A stretch of 64,000 bases of DNA from a virus (taxonomy: Duplodnaviria; Caudoviricetes), in IMG/VR virus record IMGVR_UViG_3300021400_001148, positions 192,001 through 256,000 of that record; one strand, written 5' to 3'. The notes under the pieces were generated by a model. That model was not told where the DNA came from, ran no database searches, and saw only the letters and a list, made by a program, of their open reading frames with translations. The position numbers and the translations under genes are program-made. Positions within the stretch are counted from its first letter, which is position 1, and each line of letters opens with the position of its first letter. This document shows positions 3,866 to 56,553 of the stretch, in pieces.

Positions 3866-5575
3866 TTAAATATCTTGCTTCTTTAATGTCCAGATATATT
3901 TTCTTGTTCCGCAGTCATACACCCGGTACCACCCTTTAGATTCACAAAATTCTTTTTCTGTCATCTCTGACGGGCATCCATATTTCCTAATGAGCACATC
4001 TTTTCTCATATTAAATCGATTAACCCTGCGTTTATTGATTACATAAAAATAACTTGGGGGTGTGTTCTCCTCAAACTCAAACCCTATTTTTTCATACAAG
4101 TTTCCATTGGACCATCTCCTGTCAGCAAAAGACTTAACTTTTTCCGGAGAATATGTTTCTACGAAATACTTAAACATTCTGCTTGCACCCCCGACTACGG
4201 TTGTGCCCAGCATGTTAGCAAACCTCACTAATTCATATTCTTTATCATTCCGAGGCTTACCGTTAAGATTAATCCTGTTTCGACAAAATGCCATAACACT
4301 CACCAGTTCATCTTCATAAAACAAGCCTATTCTCACATTCGTTTGTGTTTTACCTTGTATGTGGTTCCTGTCTAAAAACCGAGTGGCCGTTTTCGAGTCT
4401 ACTTCCGCAATACGACAATTTCTTGCATATATCTTTTTCTCAGTAAAGCCGAGGATGTTCCTAATCCTACTTTTACAAATGCTGTTCTTGAGCATCCACT
4501 CATCATCAAAGATTTGTATCAGGCGAATGCCCTTCTTTTCGCATTCTTCAGTTTTCAACAAGTGGTACTTCTTTTCAGTATTAAACTTTTCAGAGTGCCA
4601 GATTAGCCCATTCATCTCAAAACCAATGTTCAGGCCGGGGATAAAAATATCAATCTCCTTCGGGGGGATTACATCTCTGACATTTTCAAGAACCTCCGTA
4701 CTAGGTAGAAGTGACTTGATATACTCCAATAATTCTTTCTCAACCGTTGACTTGTCTTTAAAACATTTTGGACAGCCCTGCCCAAAAAGGTGGTTCCCCG
4801 CTATCTGTTCAAATTCACCGTGTATTGGGCATATTATCTTTAGTGGCTGACGGCTGTTTTCGTAAACAGATTGAGTATAATCATATTTGTCACCGTGAAC
4901 TTCCCTTGCTCTTTGCACCCATTCTTCTGTCGTCATCAATCTTTCACTACCACACTTTATCCTTCCACATACGGGACACCCTTGTTTTCCTTTGATGTGG
5001 TTGTTCATTGTTTGATAAAACACTCCATGCTCAGGGCAAATAATTGGATATTTAATACGGTCATTCTTGTACTCCGTGAGCATTGAATAATCGTATTTGT
5101 CCCCGTGGACTTTTTTTGCTTCCTCTATTACGGATTGAATACTCCTGCGATTCTTGGACGATGACTTTATGTATCTACACTTTGGGCATCCCTCCCCGGA
5201 CAGCAAGTGCCCCGGGGTTATTTCAAACTGACCATGTTCACAGCCGTTTTCGTCTTTCTCGTGACAAGTAACTGTTATTTTGGTTTTATTATTTACATAG
5301 ACCGTATTTTCGAATGTATATGTGCTGCAATGAGGTAGTTTGCTTACTTTATCAACAAACTCCTCGGTTGTGTACTGGTATCTTCCACTGCACTTTTTGC
5401 AACCATCGCCACGATATATGTGATGATAAAAATCTTTGTAAAAGACACCATGCTCTGGGCAAATGATGGGGCATTTAGTTCTATTATTTACATATTCTTT
5501 TATAAGAGAATAGTCATATTTGAAGTTATGCACCTCGTTTGCCAATCTGATACATTCGGATAGTGTATTTTTCAT
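3866..5575 (-). CDS. Hef-like homing endonuclease between the polB halves
   Basis: Four CPxHG-type zinc repeats; EIDIFIP…GFEMNGLIWHSE; NHIQG, SFADRRWS, VYDCG. Confidence 0.8.
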   Translation of the reverse strand: MKNTLSECIRLANEVHNFKYDYSLIKEYVNNRTKCPIICPEHGVFYKDFYHHIYRGDGCKKCSGRYQYTTEEFVDKVSKLPHCSTYTFENTVYVNNKTKITVTCHEKDENGCEHGQFEITPGHLLSGEGCPKCRYIKSSSKNRRSIQSVIEEAKKVHGDKYDYSMLTEYKNDRIKYPIICPEHGVFYQTMNNHIKGKQGCPVCGRIKCGSERLMTTEEWVQRAREVHGDKYDYTQSVYENSRQPLKIICPIHGEFEQIAGNHLFGQGCPKCFKDKSTVEKELLEYIKSLLPSTEVLENVRDVIPPKEIDIFIPGLNIGFEMNGLIWHSEKFNTEKKYHLLKTEECEKKGIRLIQIFDDEWMLKNSICKSRIRNILGFTEKKIYARNCRIAEVDSKTATRFLDRNHIQGKTQTNVRIGLFYEDELVSVMAFCRNRINLNGKPRNDKEYELVRFANMLGTTVVGGASRMFKYFVETYSPEKVKSFADRRWSNGNLYEKIGFEFEENTPPSYFYVINKRRVNRFNMRKDVLIRKYGCPSEMTEKEFCESKGWYRVYDCGTRKYIWTLKKQDI

Positions 5576-22250: not shown

Positions 22251-22739
22251 ATGAGTGATATGTTAACCAAAATGCCGTTGCAGTATGAGCCTAAAAGAAA
22301 AAATAGGTTTATACTCCGTTTTCCTTCCGACCTCGGCATTAATGAATGGACCGTGGTGAGTGCTTCAAGGCCTCAAATACAGCAAAATGTTACTGAAATC
22401 CAGTTCCTTAACACCTCTACTTATGTAGTTGGTCGTTATACTTGGCAGACCATTCAGGTAACACTTCGTGACCCAATCGGTCCAAGCTCAGCACAAGCTG
22501 TTATGGAGTGGGTTCGTCTTCATTCCGAATCAATCACTGGTCGTCAGGGATATGCCGCGGGATACAAAAGAGATGTTGAACTCGAAATGCTTGACCCTAC
22601 CGGCGTAGTGTGCGAGAAATGGATTTTGAAGAACACATTTCTAAGTGATGTCAACTATGGCAATTTAAGTTATACTGATGATGCTCTCGCTGATATTACT
22701 ATGACACTTCGTCCTGACTATTGTGTATTAGCATATTAG
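22251..22739 (+). CDS. Tail tube protein (T4 gp19-like)
   Basis: YEPKRKNRF…GR..W..I..TL.DPI.PS.AQAVMEW.RL..ES.TGR.GY. Confidence 0.85.
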   Translation: MSDMLTKMPLQYEPKRKNRFILRFPSDLGINEWTVVSASRPQIQQNVTEIQFLNTSTYVVGRYTWQTIQVTLRDPIGPSSAQAVMEWVRLHSESITGRQGYAAGYKRDVELEMLDPTGVVCEKWILKNTFLSDVNYGNLSYTDDALADITMTLRPDYCVLAY

Positions 22740-22763: not shown

Positions 22764-22797
22764 TTGGTGGCTAAGACTCTTAGCCACCATTTTTTTT
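22764..22797 (+). terminator. Terminator after the tail tube gene
   Basis: TGGTGGCTA…TAGCCACCA plus T8. Confidence 0.75.
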
Positions 22798-22862
22798 CGG
22801 AATTATCCCTTTATCTGTTGTGAATAAGTCATAAAGAAAGCCGTAGGTGAAAAATCTACGGC

Positions 22863-23387
22863 TTAAATTGTATCAACATATTGTGTTATTGTATCTGTGT
22901 TTCTTGATAGAATTGCATTGAATATACCCTGCACTTTGCTTATGCAATCAATCAGCGTTGTAGCATATTCGTCTGACTTCGTATCAATACCTTCTTCGTA
23001 GAACTTATTGTGAACGGTAAGGTTGATTGCATTTGGTATTGAGAAGTCATTTTCTTCCCAAACCTCATTAAAAACTTTTTGCCTCTTCTCAGGTGCATCA
23101 TTTCCTTTGATGGAATGCCTTGCAGCAGTTGAAAGATGTCCCCTCAATTCTCCTTTCCAATGCTCTTTTGATAATGGTTCGCCTGTAATTGTACAATAGT
23201 GAACCAAGCACCAATTTATAAGAATTTGAGGTAATTCATTGTTGATTTTTTCCTTATAAACACCCCTTGGATATGGCATTTCCATAATCAGATGTTTTCC
23301 CCTTGCTTCCAACGCCTGCTCCACAGATTCCCGAATCATTTCCCTTAATTGAGATTCGGAGAGTTTTATCACTTCTTTCTTTGCCAT
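22863..23387 (-). CDS. Passenger gene with leader motif; helical domain of unknown function
   Basis: MAKKEVIKLSESQLREMIRESVEQALE; own TATATTTG at 23407-23414; terminator at 22838-22864. Confidence 0.8.
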   Translation of the reverse strand: MAKKEVIKLSESQLREMIRESVEQALEARGKHLIMEMPYPRGVYKEKINNELPQILINWCLVHYCTITGEPLSKEHWKGELRGHLSTAARHSIKGNDAPEKRQKVFNEVWEENDFSIPNAINLTVHNKFYEEGIDTKSDEYATTLIDCISKVQGIFNAILSRNTDTITQYVDTI

Positions 23388-23439
23388 ATTCGTACTTAAG
23401 TTTTATCAAATATACTAAAAATATTTGAGAATTACAAAG

Positions 23440-23889
23440 TTAAAAGGCAAAATCACCATTAAGGTAAGAGTCTGGATGAATCGGATTTTCATAAGGTTTA
23501 TCATATTCATCTTTAAATTGATTAGCAAGTTCTATTAGTCCAACCTTCATCTTCTGAAAAGGCTCACAATATTTGTTCCCTGATTGGTAAAGAATACCTA
23601 CGGCATCAGCCAATGAGTTGATTGAGTCCTTAATTTTTCCCATAGCCGATGAATAATCAAAAACCTCTTCAGATTCCTTCAAGTTTTTATTGTTAGGGTT
23701 TTTTCCACCTTTGTATATGTAGTCCATTGTTTCCCTATACTTGCTGGCATCGTCCATATCTTTAAACCATTGTTGCATGGGGTCCTTCTTATCTCGTTTA
23801 GGGTGATATTCTTTCAAAACTTTTTTCACGCTCTCTGTAATCATGTTTCGGAGTTGCGTTTCATTCAATTTGATTACATTCTTCTCCAT
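23440..23889 (-). CDS. Passenger gene with leader motif, function unknown
   Basis: MEKNVIKLNETQLRNMITESVKKVLKE; TATTTATA at 23922-23929 on the minus strand. Confidence 0.8.
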   Translation of the reverse strand: MEKNVIKLNETQLRNMITESVKKVLKEYHPKRDKKDPMQQWFKDMDDASKYRETMDYIYKGGKNPNNKNLKESEEVFDYSSAMGKIKDSINSLADAVGILYQSGNKYCEPFQKMKVGLIELANQFKDEYDKPYENPIHPDSYLNGDFAF

Positions 23890-23946
23890 ATATTCAATCT
23901 ATTTATAAAGTCTTATTTAATTATAAATAGTTTGAAAACCAGTAAA

Positions 23947-24888
23947 CTACGCAGCAATTGAAAGTTTTACGAGACTTTCGAAACCTTCTTCCACTTTTCT
24001 GTGATTCATACGGAAACAGAATTCATCCATATATGTCTGCATGTGCTTGACTGATACATGATGATAGATACCATATACACCCCTTTTCACGATTGCCCAA
24101 AAGGATTCAATACCATTGGTATGCTTTCCGTCACCCTTGGAAAATTCAACATCGTGGTTCACCATGATACGAATGAAATTCTTCGTGTTCTCAGCACGTC
24201 CTTCGTTAATGACATTGTAGCCACTGTACTGGTCTGTCATAACCGTAGTACCTTCCTTACAGGCATCATTCAGTACCTTTAACAATTGTTTACCTGACAG
24301 TTTAGTCCCATCTGAATTCTTGGTGGCAACCACACAATGCACCCTGCCACTACTTCTTTCCTTAACACCGATAACAGGTGTTTTGGAAGACGAACCACGC
24401 CCACGCTTGTTAAATTTCTCATTGGTTTCCCTCTCATTGTGAATATTTTCCTTACGAGGTTTACCACCAACATAAGTTTCATCAACTTCCACAATGGCTT
24501 CAAAAGTATTCTTATACTCTTCCTTACCCATGCACTCACGGATAAGGTGAAGCATTCTCCAAGCACCCTTATAGGAAACCATACCAAGTTCCCTTTGCAA
24601 CTGACAAGCGGAAATACCCTTCTTTGCAACCATAACGAGATTGATTGCATACAGCCACATGCGAATGTCAAGGTGGGTATTTTCAAAGATAGTTCCTGTC
24701 AGCACAGAGAAATGGGATTTGCAGTTATTGCAGTACAAATCCTTTCCGTCATGGGAGTTGTCTCTATAGATGTTATGAACACACCCACAGAACGGGCATA
24801 CATAAGTGCCGTTATACTTAACACGGATAATGAAGTCAATGGCAGACTTCTTGGTGGGGAAACGCTTGTTGAAATCAAAAATAGTCAT
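23947..24888 (-). CDS. IS1595-family DDE transposase
   Basis: Zn ribbon CPFC…CNNC; EVDETYVGGK, MTD, HTNGIESFW..KRG..GIYH. Confidence 0.93.
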   Translation of the reverse strand: MTIFDFNKRFPTKKSAIDFIIRVKYNGTYVCPFCGCVHNIYRDNSHDGKDLYCNNCKSHFSVLTGTIFENTHLDIRMWLYAINLVMVAKKGISACQLQRELGMVSYKGAWRMLHLIRECMGKEEYKNTFEAIVEVDETYVGGKPRKENIHNERETNEKFNKRGRGSSSKTPVIGVKERSSGRVHCVVATKNSDGTKLSGKQLLKVLNDACKEGTTVMTDQYSGYNVINEGRAENTKNFIRIMVNHDVEFSKGDGKHTNGIESFWAIVKRGVYGIYHHVSVKHMQTYMDEFCFRMNHRKVEEGFESLVKLSIAA

Positions 24889-24970
24889 AGTCTAAGTCCT
24901 TCTAACCTAAATCTATGACTATATACCCTAAAAGTCCAGGATTCTTACAACATAAAAAGGGATAATTCCG

Positions 24971-25158
24971 ATTATTTTTATGTCATCAACGGAAAAAGAT
25001 ATAACCGTTTCGGATTCAGAAAAGATGTTCTGGTTAGGAAATACGGATGCCCGCCGGAGATGACAGAGAAGTCCTTCTGCGAATCAAAAGGATGGTATCG
25101 AATATACGATTGTGGGTGCCTTGTTTATAAGTGGGAAAAACCAATTGAAAGCGAGTAG
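24971..25158 (+). pseudogene. 3' remnant of a Hef-like endonuclease gene
   Basis: Reads YFYVINGKRYNRFGFRKDVLVRKYGCPPEMTEKSFCESKGWYRIYDCG…stop, closely matching the C-terminus of 3866-5575; starts at the IS end. Confidence 0.88.
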
Positions 25159-25204: not shown

Positions 25205-25371
25205 CGCAGGAGAAAATCTCACGGCTTTATCTGTTGGAATAAACCCTGTGGAGAAACTTCGTCGGGACATCGACGAATTGGCGAGCGACGGTAAGCCCAA
25301 TGACCGCGTGGTCAGCGGCGGGTGCGTTTGAAGCCAAGAATCTCACGGATTCATCCGTGGGAGTATGCCAA
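25205..25371 (+). mobile_element. Non-autonomous IS200/IS605 (TnpB-type) miniature element, copy 1
   Basis: LE hairpin remnant; RE CAAGAATCTCACGGATTCATCCGTGGGAGTATGCCAA; homologous to 56395-56553. Confidence 0.8.
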
Positions 25372-28298: not shown

Positions 28299-29966
28299 AT
28301 GAAATACTTGACCAAATTCGGTACTCAAAACGAATATGTTTCTTTTGCAAACAGCGATGCATACGAAACACCCAATGTAAGCCTTGTGGGGGAGGGTACT
28401 GTAAAGTACAATGACTATAGTAAGATGCCACTTACAATTAAAGCATTGGAAAGTGGTGTTTTTGGGCTTGTTTCGGACTATTATGAAGGATTTCTCGAAG
28501 TTGACCTCTGGTATTCAAAGAACGGTGGCGAAAGAATAACCATTACTTCTGCTGACACCGTTAGTGTCAATGCAGGTGATATTTTGGAATTGTATGGAAA
28601 CAACACCCGTTTCTACAATGATGATGACAGTGAGTTGGGCACATACTTTTCTATAGGTTTTGAGTGCAATATATATGGCAATCTAATGTCCATCTTCAAC
28701 GGGGATGGCTTCAAGACCAATTCGGAATTTACGCCGGAATATAATAAACAATGTTATGGTCTATTTAGGGAAAGCAAAGTAGTTGATGCTTCTAAATTGA
28801 TATTACCCGCAACCACGCTTGCGGGCTCTTGCTATCAGTATATGTTCAATGGTTGCACCTCCCTGATATCAGCGCCGGCGGCACTTCCAGCAACCACGCT
28901 TGCACCGGATTGCTATTCCAGTATGTTCCAAGATTGTATCTCCCTGACCTCCGCACCGGCACTCCCTGCAACGACGCTTGTGAGTAATTGCTATGAGAAT
29001 ATGTTCGCTGGTTGCGCCTCCCTGGCCTCTGCACCGGAACTCCCAGCGACCACACTTGCGAATCATTGTTATTACGGTATGTTCGATGGTTGCACTTCCC
29101 TGACCTCCGCACCGGAACTTCCAGCAACCACGCTTTCAAGTAATTGTTATAACTATATGTTCAGTGGTTGCACATCCCTGGCATCAGCACCGGAACTTCC
29201 AGCAACCACGCTTGCGAATGGTTGCTATCAGAATATGTTCTTTGGTTGCACCTCCCTTGCCTCCGCACCTGAACTTCCCGCAACCACCCTTGCGGATTCT
29301 TGCTATCAGTATATGTTCCGTAATTGCACCTCCCTGACCTCCGCGCCAGAACTTTCAGCAACCACCCTTGCGAATTCTTGCTGTCTGCATATGTTCAATG
29401 GTTGCACCTCCCTGACCTCTGTGCCGGAACTTCCCGCAACCACACTTGCGACTCGTTGCTATTCCAATATGTTCCAAGGTTGCACCTCTCTGACCTCCGC
29501 ACCTGAACTCCCCGCAACCACCCTTGCAGATAATTGCTATCAGTATATGTTCAAAAATTGCACCTCGCTGACCTCCGCGCCGGAACTTCCCGCAACCACG
29601 CTTACAACTCAATGCTATTACAATATGTTCGTAGGTTGCGTCTCCCTGACCTCCGCACCGGAACTTCCAGCAACCACACTTGCGAATTATTGCTATCAAA
29701 ATATGTTCCAAGGTTGCACTTCTCTTATCTCTGCGCCGGAACTTCCGGCGACCACCCTTGCATCTCAATGCTATTACAGCATATTCAGTGGTTGCACATC
29801 CCTAAATCACATCAAGTGCCTTGCAACGAATATATCAGCAACAGGGGCATTAACAAATTGGGTTCGGAATGTTGCCGCATCAGGAACTTTTATAAAAAAA
29901 TCAGGCGTGTCTTGGCCCTCAGGTGTGAGTGGTATTCCTTCCGGTTGGACAGTTCAAGAAGTATAA
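28299..29966 (+). CDS. BspA-like leucine-rich repeat protein
   Basis: 13 x 26-aa LPATTLxxxCYxxMFxGCTSLTSAPE repeats; C-terminal SGIPSGWTV cap. Confidence 0.85.
   Translation: MKYLTKFGTQNEYVSFANSDAYETPNVSLVGEGTVKYNDYSKMPLTIKALESGVFGLVSDYYEGFLEVDLWYSKNGGERITITSADTVSVNAGDILELYGNNTRFYNDDDSELGTYFSIGFECNIYGNLMSIFNGDGFKTNSEFTPEYNKQCYGLFRESKVVDASKLILPATTLAGSCYQYMFNGCTSLISAPAALPATTLAPDCYSSMFQDCISLTSAPALPATTLVSNCYENMFAGCASLASAPELPATTLANHCYYGMFDGCTSLTSAPELPATTLSSNCYNYMFSGCTSLASAPELPATTLANGCYQNMFFGCTSLASAPELPATTLADSCYQYMFRNCTSLTSAPELSATTLANSCCLHMFNGCTSLTSVPELPATTLATRCYSNMFQGCTSLTSAPELPATTLADNCYQYMFKNCTSLTSAPELPATTLTTQCYYNMFVGCVSLTSAPELPATTLANYCYQNMFQGCTSLISAPELPATTLASQCYYSIFSGCTSLNHIKCLATNISATGALTNWVRNVAASGTFIKKSGVSWPSGVSGIPSGWTVQEV
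28803..29804 (+). repeat. 78-bp coding tandem repeat, 13 units
   Basis: Visible periodicity in both DNA and protein. Confidence 0.9.
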
Positions 29967-30031: not shown

Positions 30032-31699
30032 CTAAGGTCTTGGAATACTTCCAGTTTGTCCATCCGGCGAAGTGAATTCAATTTCTTCGGGCTCAATATC
30101 AATGTCTCCGCCACCAATATTTGTACCATTCCCATAACCCTCAAATTTCCAAGTACCTCCGTTTTCATCTTTAACTTCACCCCAGAGGTTTACACTGCAA
30201 CCGTAAGGTGGGTCGACCCAGTCAGCAATCTCATGCTCCAGATTGGTTCGTTCGTACATTTCTTGGGCTTTCCTAAGCAGGGGATTTTGTATTGCCTCGT
30301 CGCGTTCTGCTTTGTTAAAAGCATCGGTGAAGTTTTTCAAATGCTGGGCAATCGGTTTTTTGTCTTTCGGATGAAGCGGGTTCCCGTACTGGTCCTTTTC
30401 AAGACTGTTTCTTTCACTTCCACCCCATCCATATTTTTGCCAGAACTTATTACTGGCACGACCAATCATATCAGAGGAAATTTCGTTGATTTGCTGGTTT
30501 CTTGGGGTTACCCGGCTTTGCATATCCATTGAAAATTCCTCTTTCAACACCTTTTTCACACTTTCGGTAATAATCTGTCTGAGAGTGCTCTCGTTTATCT
30601 TTACTACATTCTTCTTCATATAATTTCTTCTTTGTATCATTATTTCATTTATCGCATTCTTAATCATCTCTCGAACATCATTCTCATTCAGTTTAGTAAC
30701 CCATTTATATTCAGAAAACGGTTTTTTCTGTTTTTTGCCATCATAAAGCCATTCCTTGAATTTATCCACACTGACTTCTGTAATTTTCCTGAAGCCTTTC
30801 CAATCTTTTGAAAAGTTAGCGAAGTATGCATCTTTCGCTTCTTTTTCGTTACGAAATCCAAGCATCACCTTGCTCTCATCAAAACTACCATCGGTTTTGT
30901 TCTGGTCAACAACATATATCTTATCGAAGTCCAAATAGGTGCCGATAAAAACATCGACAGCATCCCCATCATACCCTTCGCTCCGTTTGAAGTACCCGTA
31001 ATGGTGTTTCATAACATTGAATCCCTTGGTACCATCCGGATTTTTATAATATCTCTTACTCCCTTTCGGGTTCTCTATCGTGATATCAAAGCCTTTTATC
31101 CGGACATGGCCCATACGGTAGTTACCGGCCTCTTTCTCGGAGTCAGTCGGATTCTTGTCAGCCTTGTTTGCCAAAGCGGTAATCTCTTTGTTAGTGATTT
31201 CGTTAACCATAGTGTGTTCTTTTGCTATTTCTTCAAATGCATCATATAAATCAGAATGGAAGATATGCGTTGCCTCCGGAAAAAAATATTCACCGAATTC
31301 CTCACACAAAGATTCCTCCTTATCATAGTTTGAGTGAATTATTTTATTAACAGTCTCGCTGTTTCCTTTCCGAAGCACATTTCTCATCCAGTCAATCAAT
31401 CCATGCCCAACCTCGTGCATAATACTTATTTTTGCCTGCGCCTCTATGTTGAACCGGTCATTTTCAATCCCCCGGGACCTCATTTCGGAATAAATCAACG
31501 GCAGATTAACTCCGATGACGATTTTTCCGTTAGAAATCTGCCCACTGCGCCTGTTGTACACCGCAAGCCATTTCTTACCCCGGAAGTTGTAGGACAGGTC
31601 CAGAACTATTTTCAAACCGGCCCGGGAAATTAGTTCTTCAGCATCATCCATTGCCTCTTTGGCAAATCCAAGAAATATATTTTTGAATTCTTCGGGCAT
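30032..31699 (-). CDS. Polyvalent protein: zincin metallopeptidase, InPase-like domain and leader-tagged C-terminal domain
   Basis: MHEVGH; EAGNY.MGH…ITIENPKGS…HYGY…DGDAVDVFIG…VVDQ…FDESKVMLGF; internal MKKNVVKINESTLRQIITES. Confidence 0.78.
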   Translation of the reverse strand: MPEEFKNIFLGFAKEAMDDAEELISRAGLKIVLDLSYNFRGKKWLAVYNRRSGQISNGKIVIGVNLPLIYSEMRSRGIENDRFNIEAQAKISIMHEVGHGLIDWMRNVLRKGNSETVNKIIHSNYDKEESLCEEFGEYFFPEATHIFHSDLYDAFEEIAKEHTMVNEITNKEITALANKADKNPTDSEKEAGNYRMGHVRIKGFDITIENPKGSKRYYKNPDGTKGFNVMKHHYGYFKRSEGYDGDAVDVFIGTYLDFDKIYVVDQNKTDGSFDESKVMLGFRNEKEAKDAYFANFSKDWKGFRKITEVSVDKFKEWLYDGKKQKKPFSEYKWVTKLNENDVREMIKNAINEIMIQRRNYMKKNVVKINESTLRQIITESVKKVLKEEFSMDMQSRVTPRNQQINEISSDMIGRASNKFWQKYGWGGSERNSLEKDQYGNPLHPKDKKPIAQHLKNFTDAFNKAERDEAIQNPLLRKAQEMYERTNLEHEIADWVDPPYGCSVNLWGEVKDENGGTWKFEGYGNGTNIGGGDIDIEPEEIEFTSPDGQTGSIPRP

Positions 31700-32088
31700 T
31701 AGTAAGTGTTGACAGACAGTTGTCCGTAGGTATTTATTCTTTTATAGAACCAATCTTTAATGACTTGCTGGAGAAATTTTGTCCTTCTGACTTTATCCTC
31801 GTAGATGTTTTTGAAATATGCTTCGACATTATCAAAGACCTGTCTCGGAAGCAGCGGCATTTTTTCCATCGCTTCACCGGTCTCCGGATTCTTGAATAAT
31901 GCTATTGGCTGCACATGTGGCTGTCCACCTTTCATATCAGTGTAGTTTGCCCGGGTAAAAGTTTTGTCAAGATAGTTTTTTACAGCTATCACTTTGTCCG
32001 GCTCTACAGGGTATGATGTTGATTCTTTCACCAACATCCCAATAAGCTGTTTTTCCTGTTCTTCAGTTAAAATTATTTTTCTGTTCAT
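31699..32088 (-). CDS. Hypothetical protein with leader motif
   Basis: MNRKIILTEEQ…LVKES; TATTTATG upstream. Confidence 0.7.
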   Translation of the reverse strand: MNRKIILTEEQEKQLIGMLVKESTSYPVEPDKVIAVKNYLDKTFTRANYTDMKGGQPHVQPIALFKNPETGEAMEKMPLLPRQVFDNVEAYFKNIYEDKVRRTKFLQQVIKDWFYKRINTYGQLSVNTY

Positions 32089-32168
32089 ATTTAAAGCCGT
32101 ATCTGACAACCATAAATAGTCTCCAACTTTTAAACCTGCCTGATATTTATATGTTAAAAGACAGTTAT

Positions 32169-33322: not shown

Positions 33323-33799
33323 ATGAAGAAGCGTATTATCAGAGTGACTAAAAAGCAACTCAATGAGATGATGCTTATGGAGGACGGAGAGATAACCATC
33401 ACCGACAAGGTATCACCCCAGGGGTTTGCTGCTGCACAGAATAAATCAAGAACTACCGGAGCGCAGATAAATGTCGCACTTGGTTCTACGACAAACAGTA
33501 ATGGTGGTGACGGCGTGGAGGCAAAACTTGACCCCAACGACACTACTACCAACACCAACAACAATATAAATGCTGCAAAACAGACCGGCCTCGAGACCAG
33601 TTTCGTTGCCCCCATCGAAAATTTCAACGACTACAACCAGATGAAAACCTTCTCCGATAAGGTGAGCAATACATCCGGTATTGACGAGTCGAAAAAAATC
33701 AGCAAGGGCCGTTTGCTGGAGATGAAAAAAGAATACCTTTTGAAGAATTCCAAAACTTATGAAAAGAAGGATTTTTATAACAGAGGAAATCGCAGATAA
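33323..33799 (+). CDS. Hypothetical protein with leader motif
   Basis: MKKRIIRVTKKQLNE. Confidence 0.65.
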   Translation: MKKRIIRVTKKQLNEMMLMEDGEITITDKVSPQGFAAAQNKSRTTGAQINVALGSTTNSNGGDGVEAKLDPNDTTTNTNNNINAAKQTGLETSFVAPIENFNDYNQMKTFSDKVSNTSGIDESKKISKGRLLEMKKEYLLKNSKTYEKKDFYNRGNRR

Positions 33800-34925
33800 A
33801 ATTTTAAAACTCAACGATATTCCGGAGCATCTCCTGAGTGATGTGGATTCTCACAAGACATCACTCGGGGACAATCCTTGTTTTCCCCTTGCCGGAGAAA
33901 TTTCCTATGAACATTCCGCGGCAATAAAGAGGTGGGGTGAACTCCGGAAACAGTTTGATGAAAGCCTTGATGTTGCCGGGCAGGAGAAACTCTTATCCGA
34001 GGTATCAACCAGAATAGAGGAAATTGAATCTGGGAATGAGCACATTCTCGAGAAACTATGCTTTAATATAGTCAATAAACTTTTTGCCATTCCTGCCGGG
34101 CTTGTAACTTTCAAGTGCCATATCCAACCAAATCTTGAAGGTCTTGACCGCGTCGTGCATGTGAAGTCGGAGGACACCCCGGGGATGAAATTTAAAAACA
34201 CCGCCCAAATCAAGGAACTCCGTGACGAGGTTTTCAAACGCAGGACTATCAATGCACTCATAATGGGCGCCGCCCTTACATATTCAAACCTGCCCAAGGA
34301 GTTCGTGGGAGATGTGTATGAAATAGACCCCGAACTTCCTAAACTCTATAAACAGTATAACCTTCTCAATAATCTTCTCTTATTCGAGAAACCTACGGAG
34401 ATAACCGAAGACAATAAACAGCAGGGCGGTCTGGTACGGGTAAACCTCGGAAACGACATAAAAAGGACGGCCATTGAGGCATATGGTAAAAACTTTCCGA
34501 TTCTCCTTTGTGAATCCATCCGTGGCTTTATGGAACTTTTCGCATCCCACGGACTCCCGGAAGAAAAATCTGAGGCTGAATTCGTTATGAAAAAAGCTGA
34601 CTTCCTCGCTGCGGAACCTTGGGATATGCGTCTCGGGCCTGTGATGTGGAAGTCTCTCGTATCGGCGATAGGCGGTGTTGAAAGCACATTCCTTCCGTCG
34701 ATATTCATGAAACTCACCTCCCTGCCGGCAACGGACTTTTTCCATATTATGAGTGAAATTCTGGCTGAAACGGAGGAGGGCGATGAAATTATGTCTTCCA
34801 TAGCAGAAGAAGCAAAGCACGATATCGACTACGATGATTTCTGTGACACGCTTGCCCAGAAAAATATGGATAAGAATATGATTGCTGATGAGTACCTCTC
34901 AGAGAGTGATTTGGATATGTTCTAA
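33759..34925 (+). CDS. Hypothetical head-module protein
   Basis: 388 aa ORF, MKRRIFITEE leader, upstream of the prohead protease. Confidence 0.7.
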   Translation: MKRRIFITEEIADKILKLNDIPEHLLSDVDSHKTSLGDNPCFPLAGEISYEHSAAIKRWGELRKQFDESLDVAGQEKLLSEVSTRIEEIESGNEHILEKLCFNIVNKLFAIPAGLVTFKCHIQPNLEGLDRVVHVKSEDTPGMKFKNTAQIKELRDEVFKRRTINALIMGAALTYSNLPKEFVGDVYEIDPELPKLYKQYNLLNNLLLFEKPTEITEDNKQQGGLVRVNLGNDIKRTAIEAYGKNFPILLCESIRGFMELFASHGLPEEKSEAEFVMKKADFLAAEPWDMRLGPVMWKSLVSAIGGVESTFLPSIFMKLTSLPATDFFHIMSEILAETEEGDEIMSSIAEEAKHDIDYDDFCDTLAQKNMDKNMIADEYLSESDLDMF

Positions 34926-34952: not shown

Positions 34953-35645
34953 ATGAGACTTGTTGAGATAAAGAAAAACAATATAGGGACGGGACTTTTG
35001 GTTGAAAGTGACGGATTCATTTCGTTGCAGGATGAACATAACAAGCCCCTGCGTGAGGCTATAGGGGCCCCGGGGGAACTTAATCTTCCCAATCCGTTTG
35101 TGGTAAATGCGGTGTTTCAGAAATTCGGCATTGAAAACGCCAACGGAAGAATCTACCCAGAGGATGTACTCAAAAGAGAAGTTGAGAAGTATCTTCAAAA
35201 AGTCGCTGACAGAAGGGGCTACGGAGAAGCCAACCACCCGGATTCGAGTTCAATTGATACCGACCGCATCGCTATAAACATCATTGAACTCCACTGGGAA
35301 GGAAACACTCTTGTCGGTAAAATAGAGCTCCCGCTTTCCCCGGGGTTCAGAAAATATGGCATTATCACTTGCAAAGCTGACCTCGTGGCAAACTGGCTTC
35401 TTAACGGCCTCAAACTCGGCGTTTCTTCCAGAGGCGTGGGTTCCGTTGAACAGAAATACGGAAAATATATTGTCGGTGACGATTTTGAACTTATCTGCTG
35501 GGATGTGGTAACCGACCCGTCGACCCCGGGAGCATGGATTTCCGAAAATCCAGAAGAACTTCAGCAATATGTGGAATCAAAGGAAGATAAAGAAAATATT
35601 TTAACGGAAAAATTAAATAAATTCAAAGATTGGCTTTCAATATAA
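34953..35645 (+). CDS. Prohead core protease (T4 gp21-like)
   Basis: NANGRIYP, GEANHP, LGVSSRGVGS, WDVVTDPSTPGA. Confidence 0.92.
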   Translation: MRLVEIKKNNIGTGLLVESDGFISLQDEHNKPLREAIGAPGELNLPNPFVVNAVFQKFGIENANGRIYPEDVLKREVEKYLQKVADRRGYGEANHPDSSSIDTDRIAINIIELHWEGNTLVGKIELPLSPGFRKYGIITCKADLVANWLLNGLKLGVSSRGVGSVEQKYGKYIVGDDFELICWDVVTDPSTPGAWISENPEELQQYVESKEDKENILTEKLNKFKDWLSI

Positions 35646-47597: not shown

Positions 47598-47752
47598 AAA
47601 AAGGTGGTATTTTACCACCTTTTATTTTGGGAACGATATACTACTTTACACCAATAATCGTGTAAATATTTGAAGTCCAGCGCAAATAACGCTGGACTAT
47701 TTGTAAGATTCCGCTAGTTTTCAGGTATAGATGTGTAGAAAGTACCTGAACT

Positions 47753-48694
47753 ATGAGACTTGAACTTGAACATTTTGACTCCCTTATCTTCCTAGTCAGC
47801 CATTTCAATAGCTACAAACGTTGCCGTGACTTCATTACCAAGCAGCGTTGGGGTAAGGTGGTTGTCTGCCCGCACTGCGGCTCCGTGCATGTTTACACAT
47901 GTAGCAACGGTGATAATCAGTTCAAGTGTGCCGATTGTCACAAGCGATTCTCCTGTCTTGTAGGCACCATCTTCGAAAATACCAAACTGCCCTTGCAGAA
48001 ATGGTTTATGGCTATGTATCTTATCAGTAGCCATAAGAAGGGGATTTCCTCCCATCAGCTTGGACGTGACATCCACGTCACGCAGAAGACTGCATGGTAT
48101 ATTCTCCATAAAGTTCGTACTCTGTTTGCACAGTACGATACTACCGTCCTTTACGGTGAGGTGGAAATGGACGAAATGTACCTTGGTGGACGTGAAACCA
48201 ATAAGCACGAATCCAAGAAAACAGAAGGAACGCAGGGACGTTCCACCAAGACTAAGACTCCCATCTTCGGTATGGTGGCAAGAGAAGGCGAAGCCCGTGC
48301 TCTTGTCGTAAAGGACACCAAGGCTGCTACGCTTTTGCCCATCATCAAACAGTTCGTTGCTGACAATGCTCATATCTTTACGGACGAGCTCAGTTCGTAT
48401 GCAGGTTTGTCTGGTGAAGGATACAAGCACGGCATCATCCACCACGGCGAAAAGGAATATTCTAAGGACGGTATCACCACCAACTCCATCGAAGGTTTTT
48501 GGGCTCATTTCAAGCGCACGGTGTTTGGTATCTATCACTTCGTGAGCAAGGAATACCTTCAGCAGTATATCAACGAATCCGTGTACCGTTACAATACAAG
48601 AAAAGCGAACGAATCCGTCCGCTTTGCCGATATGTTATCCAAGTGTATTGGAGTATGCTCCTATGAAGACGTTAAGTCGCTGAAGGTGGCTTAA
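47753..48694 (+). CDS. IS1595-family DDE transposase
   Basis: CPHC…CADC; EMDEMYLGG, FTDE, TTNSIEGFW..KR…GIYH. Confidence 0.93.
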   Translation: MRLELEHFDSLIFLVSHFNSYKRCRDFITKQRWGKVVVCPHCGSVHVYTCSNGDNQFKCADCHKRFSCLVGTIFENTKLPLQKWFMAMYLISSHKKGISSHQLGRDIHVTQKTAWYILHKVRTLFAQYDTTVLYGEVEMDEMYLGGRETNKHESKKTEGTQGRSTKTKTPIFGMVAREGEARALVVKDTKAATLLPIIKQFVADNAHIFTDELSSYAGLSGEGYKHGIIHHGEKEYSKDGITTNSIEGFWAHFKRTVFGIYHFVSKEYLQQYINESVYRYNTRKANESVRFADMLSKCIGVCSYEDVKSLKVA

Positions 48695-49005
48695 TCACTA
48701 AGCGTGCTTGCTTCTTGTCTAACTCTATCTGCCCATTGCTTTGCTTTGATAAACCAATTGTCCTCACTATTCGTTCCGTTCATGGCGAGCGAGGATAATT
48801 TCCTTGCAGCCTTTTCTATTATTCGGAGTAACAACAAAGAATCATCACACTCATCAATGAGGGACATTATTTGTCTCTCATATGCAAAGAATTCCGCATT
48901 CCCATTTTCTGTATTAGGATACCCCTCATTCAGCGTCTTTTTTATTGCCCCCGCAATAACCTTGCGGAGTTGTTGTTCATTGAGCTTTATTGTATTCTTC
49001 TTCAT
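48691..49005 (-). CDS. Passenger gene with leader motif, function unknown
   Basis: MKKNTIKLNEQQLRKVIAGAIKKTLNE; TATTTATA at 49235-49242 on the minus strand, inside the element. Confidence 0.75.
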   Translation of the reverse strand: MKKNTIKLNEQQLRKVIAGAIKKTLNEGYPNTENGNAEFFAYERQIMSLIDECDDSLLLLRIIEKAARKLSSLAMNGTNSEDNWFIKAKQWADRVRQEASTLSD

Positions 49006-49053
49006 ATTCTTGTTTGATTTTGATTCGTTAGTTTTATTCTGTATATTTGCATC

Positions 49054-49235
49054 CGAAGGTGTATTAGCGTCAAGTGAAGCAGTATCCATAGGAAGGCGTG
49101 TATTTCCAAAGGATGAACTACCGTCTGTACTGTCAGGGACTTTGATAGCGCTAATTACCTTATGGGTGAATCCGTTTAATCACCAAACAAAAGAACTCCG
49201 TTCTCCCCGTAGTCCTTCGCTGCGGGGTTCTTTTT
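49054..49235 (+). ncRNA. Candidate structured small RNA inside IS element B
   Basis: TATATTTG at 49042-49049; long closing stem 49056-49074/49140-49161; GC hairpin plus T-tract at 49205-49235. Confidence 0.5.
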
Positions 49236-49296
49236 ATAAATATGCCTTATTCTCGAAAAGAGTCAAGAGATAGTGTAAACTAGTATATCGTTCCCT

Positions 49297-56394: not shown

Positions 56395-56553
56395 TTGACA
56401 TACTCCCACGGATGAATCCGTGAGATTCTTGATTTTAAACGCACCCGCCGCTGACCACACGGTCATTGGTCTTACAAGCACTCACCAATTCGTCGATGTC
56501 CCGACGAAGTACGGGATTCATCCCACCACTAAAGTAGTGGGTTTTCTCCCGGA
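56395..56553 (-). mobile_element. Non-autonomous IS200/IS605 (TnpB-type) miniature element, copy 2
   Basis: LE hairpin CCCACTACTTTAGTGGTGGG; RE …CTCACGGATTCATCCGTGGGAGTATGTCAA; homologous to 25205-25371. Confidence 0.82.

Follow-up and report, generated by a model that had tools for sequence, protein, structure and literature searches.

An insertion sequence beside two small genes in a phage genome raises the question of whether those genes are resident neighbours or cargo that travels with it, and, if cargo, what the phage gains from them. The window (the whole stretch of DNA that was analysed, 64,000 nucleotides) corresponds to bases 192,001-256,000 of a complete 354,809-bp T4-like jumbo phage record with direct terminal repeats. 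The phage genome encodes a T4 gp21-type prohead protease (window 34953-35645; E 1e-23), a gp23 capsid protein (E 1e-61) and a gp19-like tail tube. The closest cultured capsids, those of Flavobacterium immuto phages, Microcystis Mel-JY01 and Rhodothermus RM378, are less than 40% identical.

Element A and its layout

Element A is a 2,173-bp IS1595 element at 22798-24970 of the window, in which a transposase gene and two co-oriented passengers, P1 and P2, lie between terminal inverted repeats (TIRs). Its features, with the immediate flanks, are as follows.

24970-25155, plus strand: flank, 3' remnant of a DUF723/Mom-like gene, 61 codons, without a start
24947-24970, minus strand: left TIR, upstream of the transposase, starting CGGAATT and kept in sister elements
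23947-24888, minus strand: IS1595 DDE transposase, 313 aa, intact, with an N-terminal zinc ribbon (Pfam and catalytic motifs)
23922-23929, minus strand: probable phage late promoter motif TATTTATA before P1, one arm of a hairpin whose other arm, the reverse complement of the motif, is at 23900-23907
23440-23889, minus strand: passenger P1, 149 aa, a leader followed by two modules bounded by LKE sites
23407-23438, minus strand: Bacteroidales primary-sigma promoter TTTG-N20-TATATTTG before P2 (sequence match to the consensus TTTG-N20-TAnnTTTG)
22863-23387, minus strand: passenger P2, 174 aa, leader at residues 1-36 and helical domain at 37-174
22838-22864, minus strand: intrinsic-terminator-like hairpin, 9-bp stem and T-rich tail, just inside the right TIR
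22798-22821, plus strand: right TIR (TIR match)
22765-22797, plus strand: flank, terminator of the gp19-like tail-tube gene (22251-22739)

The preliminary description had reported 24-bp TIRs enclosing the transposase and two downstream genes, and these are present: the ends match at 22/24 positions and are found nowhere else in the 354,809-bp genome. Chance or artefact as the source of element A was ruled out by this genome-unique TIR pair and by the identical element in several independent assemblies. All assemblies of this phage that were found have the element intact, and the records with identical copies come from rumen or gut metagenomes, judging by their names. Both passengers also carry the shared leader that had been noted, scoring E 2.8e-12 (P1) and 5e-6 (P2) with an HMM built from non-IS genes of the phage. 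The late motif, host-type promoter and internal terminator were likewise located, as TATTTATA before P1, a full promoter before P2 that follows the Bacteroidales consensus given in PMC8748976, and the hairpin inside the right end, which a generic terminator scan overlooks. TATTTAT is read as a late motif because of its position upstream of 50/398 phage genes, tube, protease and scaffold among them; its placement shows a positional peak. It is enriched before leader genes, standing upstream of 8/17 of these versus 42/381 other genes (p 4e-4).

Family assignment and insertion site

The transposase matches DDE_Tnp_IS1595 in Pfam (PF12762, E 1.4e-30), with catalytic motifs at residues 133, 216, 256 and 286, and has a dN/dS of 0.04-0.05. 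Its zinc ribbon shows two CxxC pairs and matches PF12760 below the cut-off (E 0.015); an N-terminal zinc ribbon is found in all IS1595 groups but IS1016. The family was reportedly defined by Siguier, Gagnevin and Chandler in 2009. CGGAATT at the ends of element A fits CGGnnTT, which we take to be the end consensus of ISNha5. With a DDE transposase, a zinc ribbon and TIRs of about 25 bp (22/24), element A belongs to the IS1595 family as defined in PMC8101967. It is also a transporter IS (tIS), as its passengers lie inside the TIRs and move with the element: the cargo recurs at other sites, and other cargo is found between the same ends.

The vehicle is therefore of a known type, the IS1595 transporter element, of which MTnSag1 and tISCpe8 are examples. 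MTnSag1/tISSag10 and tISCpe8 (PMC5704250) likewise have one zinc-ribbon DDE transposase with the passengers behind it, TIRs of about 25 bp, AT-rich targets and a length of about 2 kb, and they make 8-bp duplications, as do most sister elements of A. The known passengers of such elements confer resistance or regulation and reside in bacterial chromosomes and plasmids, whereas the family of element A resides in lytic-type jumbo phages and host chromosomes, with cargo that is phage-derived, phage-promoter-driven, tagged and highly variable.

Element A starts directly after the T run of the tail-tube gene terminator. At its other edge the DUF723/Mom-like gene (a putative homing endonuclease) is cut, and the likeness of this remnant to a paralogue at 3866-5575 begins there. 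The flanks agree at 6/8 positions, which leaves no perfect 8-bp target duplication; among the sister cargo sets the duplication is 8/8 in seven of ten and 7/8 in one. An adjacent deletion mediated by the IS is probably the simplest account of the 6/8 flanks and the truncated neighbour. An empty allele of the insertion site was not found, the tube-terminator pattern having matched no viral contig and the tail-tube loci of relatives being rearranged. Viral contigs gave no match to the transposase search or to a longer TIR pattern, and 50,697 phage records yielded five weak insertion-sequence matches.

Sister elements and exchange of cargo

Nineteen transposase clusters are 79-94% identical, and their loci all have the same ends as element A. 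The preliminary description had proposed that a variable array of cassettes travels inside the IS, a claim that a comparison of passenger content among elements with these TIRs bears out. Ten distinct cargo sets lie between A-type TIRs behind transposases 80-91% identical, in phages and in Cryptobacteroides/Bacteroidales chromosomes. A leader gene is present in nine, strong in seven and weak in two when scored with the HMM from non-IS phage genes, and the tenth is a complete diversity-generating retroelement (DGR) without a leader. The late motif stands at most 80 bases from the transposase stop in 8/10 sets.

The P1-P2 set itself also occurs with other flanks. The whole transposase-P1-P2 unit is found in L191/L201 with another right flank, beside OmpA/NAMPT phage genes, its transposase being 84.5% identical in DNA. 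In L179 the set has another left flank, and 1,323 identical bases are common to L179 and the window copy; recombination or a mosaic assembly may account for L179. The finding that would have counted against transport, namely both genes at this locus in related phages without TIRs or transposase, did not turn up: no match to P1, P2 or the transposase was obtained in 80 tail-tube loci of related phages, which are too distant to represent true empty alleles. Because the same unit is present at other sites and absent from the 80 tube-gene loci, the passengers are cargo and not resident neighbours, and element A is almost certainly a mobile unit with variable cargo.

As a transporter IS1595, element A is autonomous, and it belongs to a family common to rumen jumbo phages and their probable Cryptobacteroides/Bacteroidales hosts. 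Sequence comparison shows that the family moves with its passengers as a unit and makes 8-bp duplications in AT-rich intergenic sites. It also shows that cargo is exchanged faster than the transposase diverges, and that most of it derives from small leader-tagged genes of the phage, which have promoters and terminators of their own.

A-type ends were also seen in a second jumbo-phage lineage, which has the gp21 domain as well; there they enclose genes with that lineage's own, different short leader. Its transposase-free cassettes, with single genes, A-type TIRs and a short leader of the MxHIKR type, are at L003:9265-10335, L004:8531-9122, L015:3062-3533, L029:3409-4441 and L312:120-3507. One genome of this lineage holds one autonomous element and two transposase-free cassettes.

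Relation to element B

A second IS1595, element B (window 47629-49295), differs from element A in its TIRs and contains a single leader gene, in convergent orientation (48691-49089). From the differing TIRs the preliminary description had concluded that the two acquisitions were independent. Separate insertions hold good, given that the ends differ and the transposases are 36% identical; independent cargo pools do not, for P2 is shared. P2 homologues with the same terminator occur in B-type elements (L192, L200, L204, L206, L209), so that the hairpin terminator accompanies P2 whichever the TIR family. In L172, a leader array of four genes, a P1 homologue is followed by a B-type TIR. P2 is often found between two right ends, and leader arrays finish in a TIR; the sequences suggest that arrays grow by capture of a neighbouring gene together with a new end.

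Both TIR families include transposase-free cassettes with perfect 8-bp duplications. In these TIR-bounded single-gene cassettes and in arrays that grow by tandem ends, the two families resemble non-autonomous mobile insertion cassettes (MICs) and integron-like cassette arrays. Element A itself differs in being autonomous, and it has no integrase or attC sites. The B-type transposase-free cassettes L251, L254, L267, L295, L260 and L293 have perfect duplications and carry leader genes or long proteins, the latter with an N-terminus like that of a 26-aa repeat protein at window 28299-29966.

Passengers P1 and P2

The LKE sites of P1 end at residues 27 and 72, and it is at these sites that modules have been gained or lost among P1 homologues. 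P2 belongs to a helical family of more than 300 clusters. The dN/dS ratios (0.14-0.22 for P1 and 0.04-0.08 for P2; 0.04-0.22 overall) indicate that purifying selection acts on both passengers. Structure prediction, proposed earlier for both, succeeded for P2, with a confident model (pLDDT 91) in which a separate leader helix precedes a domain starting at residue 37, and failed for P1, whose model was unreliable (pLDDT 46) and unusable. Conserved residues of P2 (R41, Q54, H76, W77, E80, K128, E132) may mark a surface for binding or catalysis. Phages also have homologues of P1 and P2 outside any IS, those of P2 in many phages and often with host and late promoters, and each passenger occurs without the other.

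Neither passenger matched a characterised family. Foldseek searches of P2 against the PDB and viral models gave no hit, the best being an uncharacterised myovirus protein (TM 0.56), and P2 had no hit in the Atlas and none by PDB sequence search. The best structural match of the P2 domain was the DUF29 protein Rru_A3208 (PDB 3fcn; Z 7.4, rmsd 3.1, 105 residues, 8% identity; next rows Z 6.2), with a Z score that falls within the range of common helical bundles. Profiles gave no support for assigning P2 to DUF29 (PF01724): the hhalign probability was 0.4% against a shallow profile of 14 Bacteroidota sequences, and the Pfam listing of 131 homologues did not include the family. A literature search returned no paper on the DUF29 lead.

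The leader and its predicted cleavage

The P2 leader ends in a predicted gp21 site at E36. Across P2 homologues a hydrophobic-X-E motif stands directly before the folded domain in 121/127, with leaders from 11 to 69 residues long; inside the P2 domain the pattern is found at 36% of glutamates. The P2 site resembles the end of the phage's own capsid propeptide (KHLIME in P2 vs KHLMTE in gp23). In T4, the N-terminal targeting peptides of the internal proteins are removed by gp21, which cleaves after L/I-X-E (PMC9026906). The leader is present in 9/21 cargo genes vs about 10/396 phage genes, counts that come from related elements and are not independent, and it is often internal in sister cargo.

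The passengers invite comparison with the T4 internal head proteins IPI, IPII, IPIII and Alt (PMC9026906), which are also small, dispensable, variable proteins with a common N-terminal leader and an L/I-X-E before the mature part, and this phage has gp21 and gp23 homologues. In contrast to T4, the leader here is longer (25-36 residues), has another consensus, is not homologous to the T4 targeting sequence, can be internal and rides on a transposon. PHROG and Pfam gave no match between the passengers and the T4 IP proteins or targeting sequence, and cultured phages no meaningful one; a search of cultured phages with the leader returned chance hits only.

Taken together, the leader, the site at the domain boundary, the likeness to the capsid propeptide, the P1 modules and the purifying selection argue well, though indirectly, that the proteins are loaded into the prohead and cleaved, and the leader is probably a capsid-loading propeptide. 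The earlier designation of the passengers as virion cargo is still an inference, well supported at the sequence level by the conserved gp21-type site at the domain boundary and by the phage's gp21 and gp23.

A second leader type (K.I..TEEQ) is found on convergent cargo genes (L084:6847-7266, L087:7000-7374 and the L224 cargo) and on resident head-region genes at window 31699-32109 and 33759-34925. A polyvalent protein at window 30032-31699 has an InPase domain and, internally, a leader that shares 74% identity with the beginning of P1.

Copies in host chromosomes

Several sister elements have clearly chromosomal settings, with surroundings of 44-51% GC and cargo of 33-40% GC, and adjoin rpsA, cytochrome bd, fatty-acid or sbcCD-like genes. 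MAGs under the names Cryptobacteroides, Bacteroidia and Bacteroidales contain three of them, and a transposase 69-91% identical is present in 5/401 Cryptobacteroides genomes. The chromosomal copies, the MAG names and the 5/401 genomes indicate hosts resembling Cryptobacteroides and movement of elements between phage and chromosome. Most of the transposase tree is unresolved, and it gives no direction of transfer.

A TIR-free P2 homologue (72%) was found at L182:5001-5519 (also L183-L187 and L193), immediately after a tRNA gene on a chromosome of Bacteroidales with 58-60% GC. The copy in L182-L187 keeps the first half of the IS-borne terminator and has a dN/dS of 0.17.

Proposed explanation and alternatives

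The best reading, and in our judgement a likely one, is that of a passenger-carrying IS which would shuffle prohead-loaded proteins among jumbo phages via host chromosomes. P1 would be made late in the phage, and P2 from the host-type promoter and by read-through. The leader would target both to the prohead core, where the gp21-like protease would cut after L/I-X-E, and the mature pieces would be packaged and then injected into the next host as T4 internal proteins are. There they would probably serve host take-over or counter-defence, useful cargo paying for the IS in the phage, with chromosomal copies acting as a reservoir for cassette exchange between lytic phages. We rate the chances as even that the cargo is injected and works on the phage's behalf as an effector of host take-over or counter-defence; this role is favoured because of the analogy with T4 IPI, which blocks a restriction enzyme (PMC9026906).

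Tolerated hitch-hiking is an unlikely account of the same arrangement. An IS in AT-rich late-region sites would capture self-contained neighbours via a distal or second end, and leader genes would dominate as small, dispensable and autonomous, without benefit to IS or phage. Tandem right ends around P2 and arrays ending in a TIR look like such end accretion (L188, L192, L200, L204, L209, L314, L315), unrelated cargo (DGR, TnpB) is carried too, and phages do hold IS-free P1 and P2 homologues. However, leader genes are strongly over-represented relative to their genome share, the late motif is kept behind the transposase stop even in chromosomal copies, leaders are matched to the lineage, and selection between IS-borne copies is purifying.

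The many chromosomal copies with intact cargo and late motif, and the TIR-free P2 homologue kept behind a tRNA gene (L182-L187, dN/dS 0.17), could also be viewed as a trap set by the host. The chromosomal late promoter would be silent until a jumbo phage infects, and the tagged proteins would then enter proheads or titrate scaffold or protease, cutting phage yield, the phage copy being acquired and tolerated. We consider this improbable, since the element is intact in all assemblies of the phage that were found, many phages have resident P2 homologues outside any IS, often with host and late promoters, and the element is rare in host genomes (2-5/401). It is highly improbable that the leader is a small dimerisation or regulatory helix (RelB-like antitoxin) and P1/P2 a toxin-antitoxin-like pair stabilising the IS: two small adjacent genes, leader-region matches to PF25734 that are weak and miss the cut-off (E 5e-4 to 1e-4) and DUF29 as best fold match of P2 (Z 7.4) fit it, but P1 and P2 are found without each other, DUF29 profile likeness is absent (hhalign 0.4%), and the conserved cleavage-type site and capsid-propeptide match are left unexplained.

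Beyond the shuffling of prohead-loaded proteins by a passenger-carrying IS, a broader proposal is put forward tentatively. IS1595 may be a cassette-shuffling engine for an injected-protein arsenal, in which at least two TIR families would build and exchange lineage-tag-matched effector arrays, mobilise DGRs and TnpB, and relay them via host chromosomes, where some cargo would be domesticated. No description of the cargo class, the phage-host shuttle or the lineage-matched tags was found in the open-access literature, coverage of which was incomplete. Insertion sequences are rare in sequenced lytic phages, and a family specialised in late, capsid-tagged cargo that crosses between phage and host would explain the renewal of internal proteins without co-infection. 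The combination of TIR pair, leader and L/I-X-E offers a sequence rule for mining candidate counter-defence proteins, and the leader is a candidate loading tag for protein delivery with Bacteroidales phages.

Other mobile cargo and repeats

The DGR-carrying IS (L091:4917-10378) has 86% transposase identity, 24/24 TIRs and a perfect 8-bp duplication. It contains a 550-aa target, Avd, a template repeat, a reverse transcriptase and a 181-aa gene, and is a case of an insertion sequence moving a DGR. Lone TnpB genes (IS605 OrfB, Cas12f-like) lie between IS1595-type TIRs in rumen jumbo phages, in cassettes more distant from element A, several with perfect 8-bp duplications (L004:5261-6545, L061:50-1341, L064:6052-7367; B-type in L252, L270, L286); TnpB has apparently been re-hosted by a DDE element.

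Solo B-type TIR-like sequences are present in the phage at window 3865 and genome 52630 and 25444, and one of them lies at the end of the DUF723/Mom-like gene at 3866-5575. Just beyond element A lies a palindrome-rich repeat of 116 bp with at least three copies, 88-91% identical (window 25256-25371 and 56395-56510, genome 348285-348400), which is probably an IS200/IS605-type end or a MITE.
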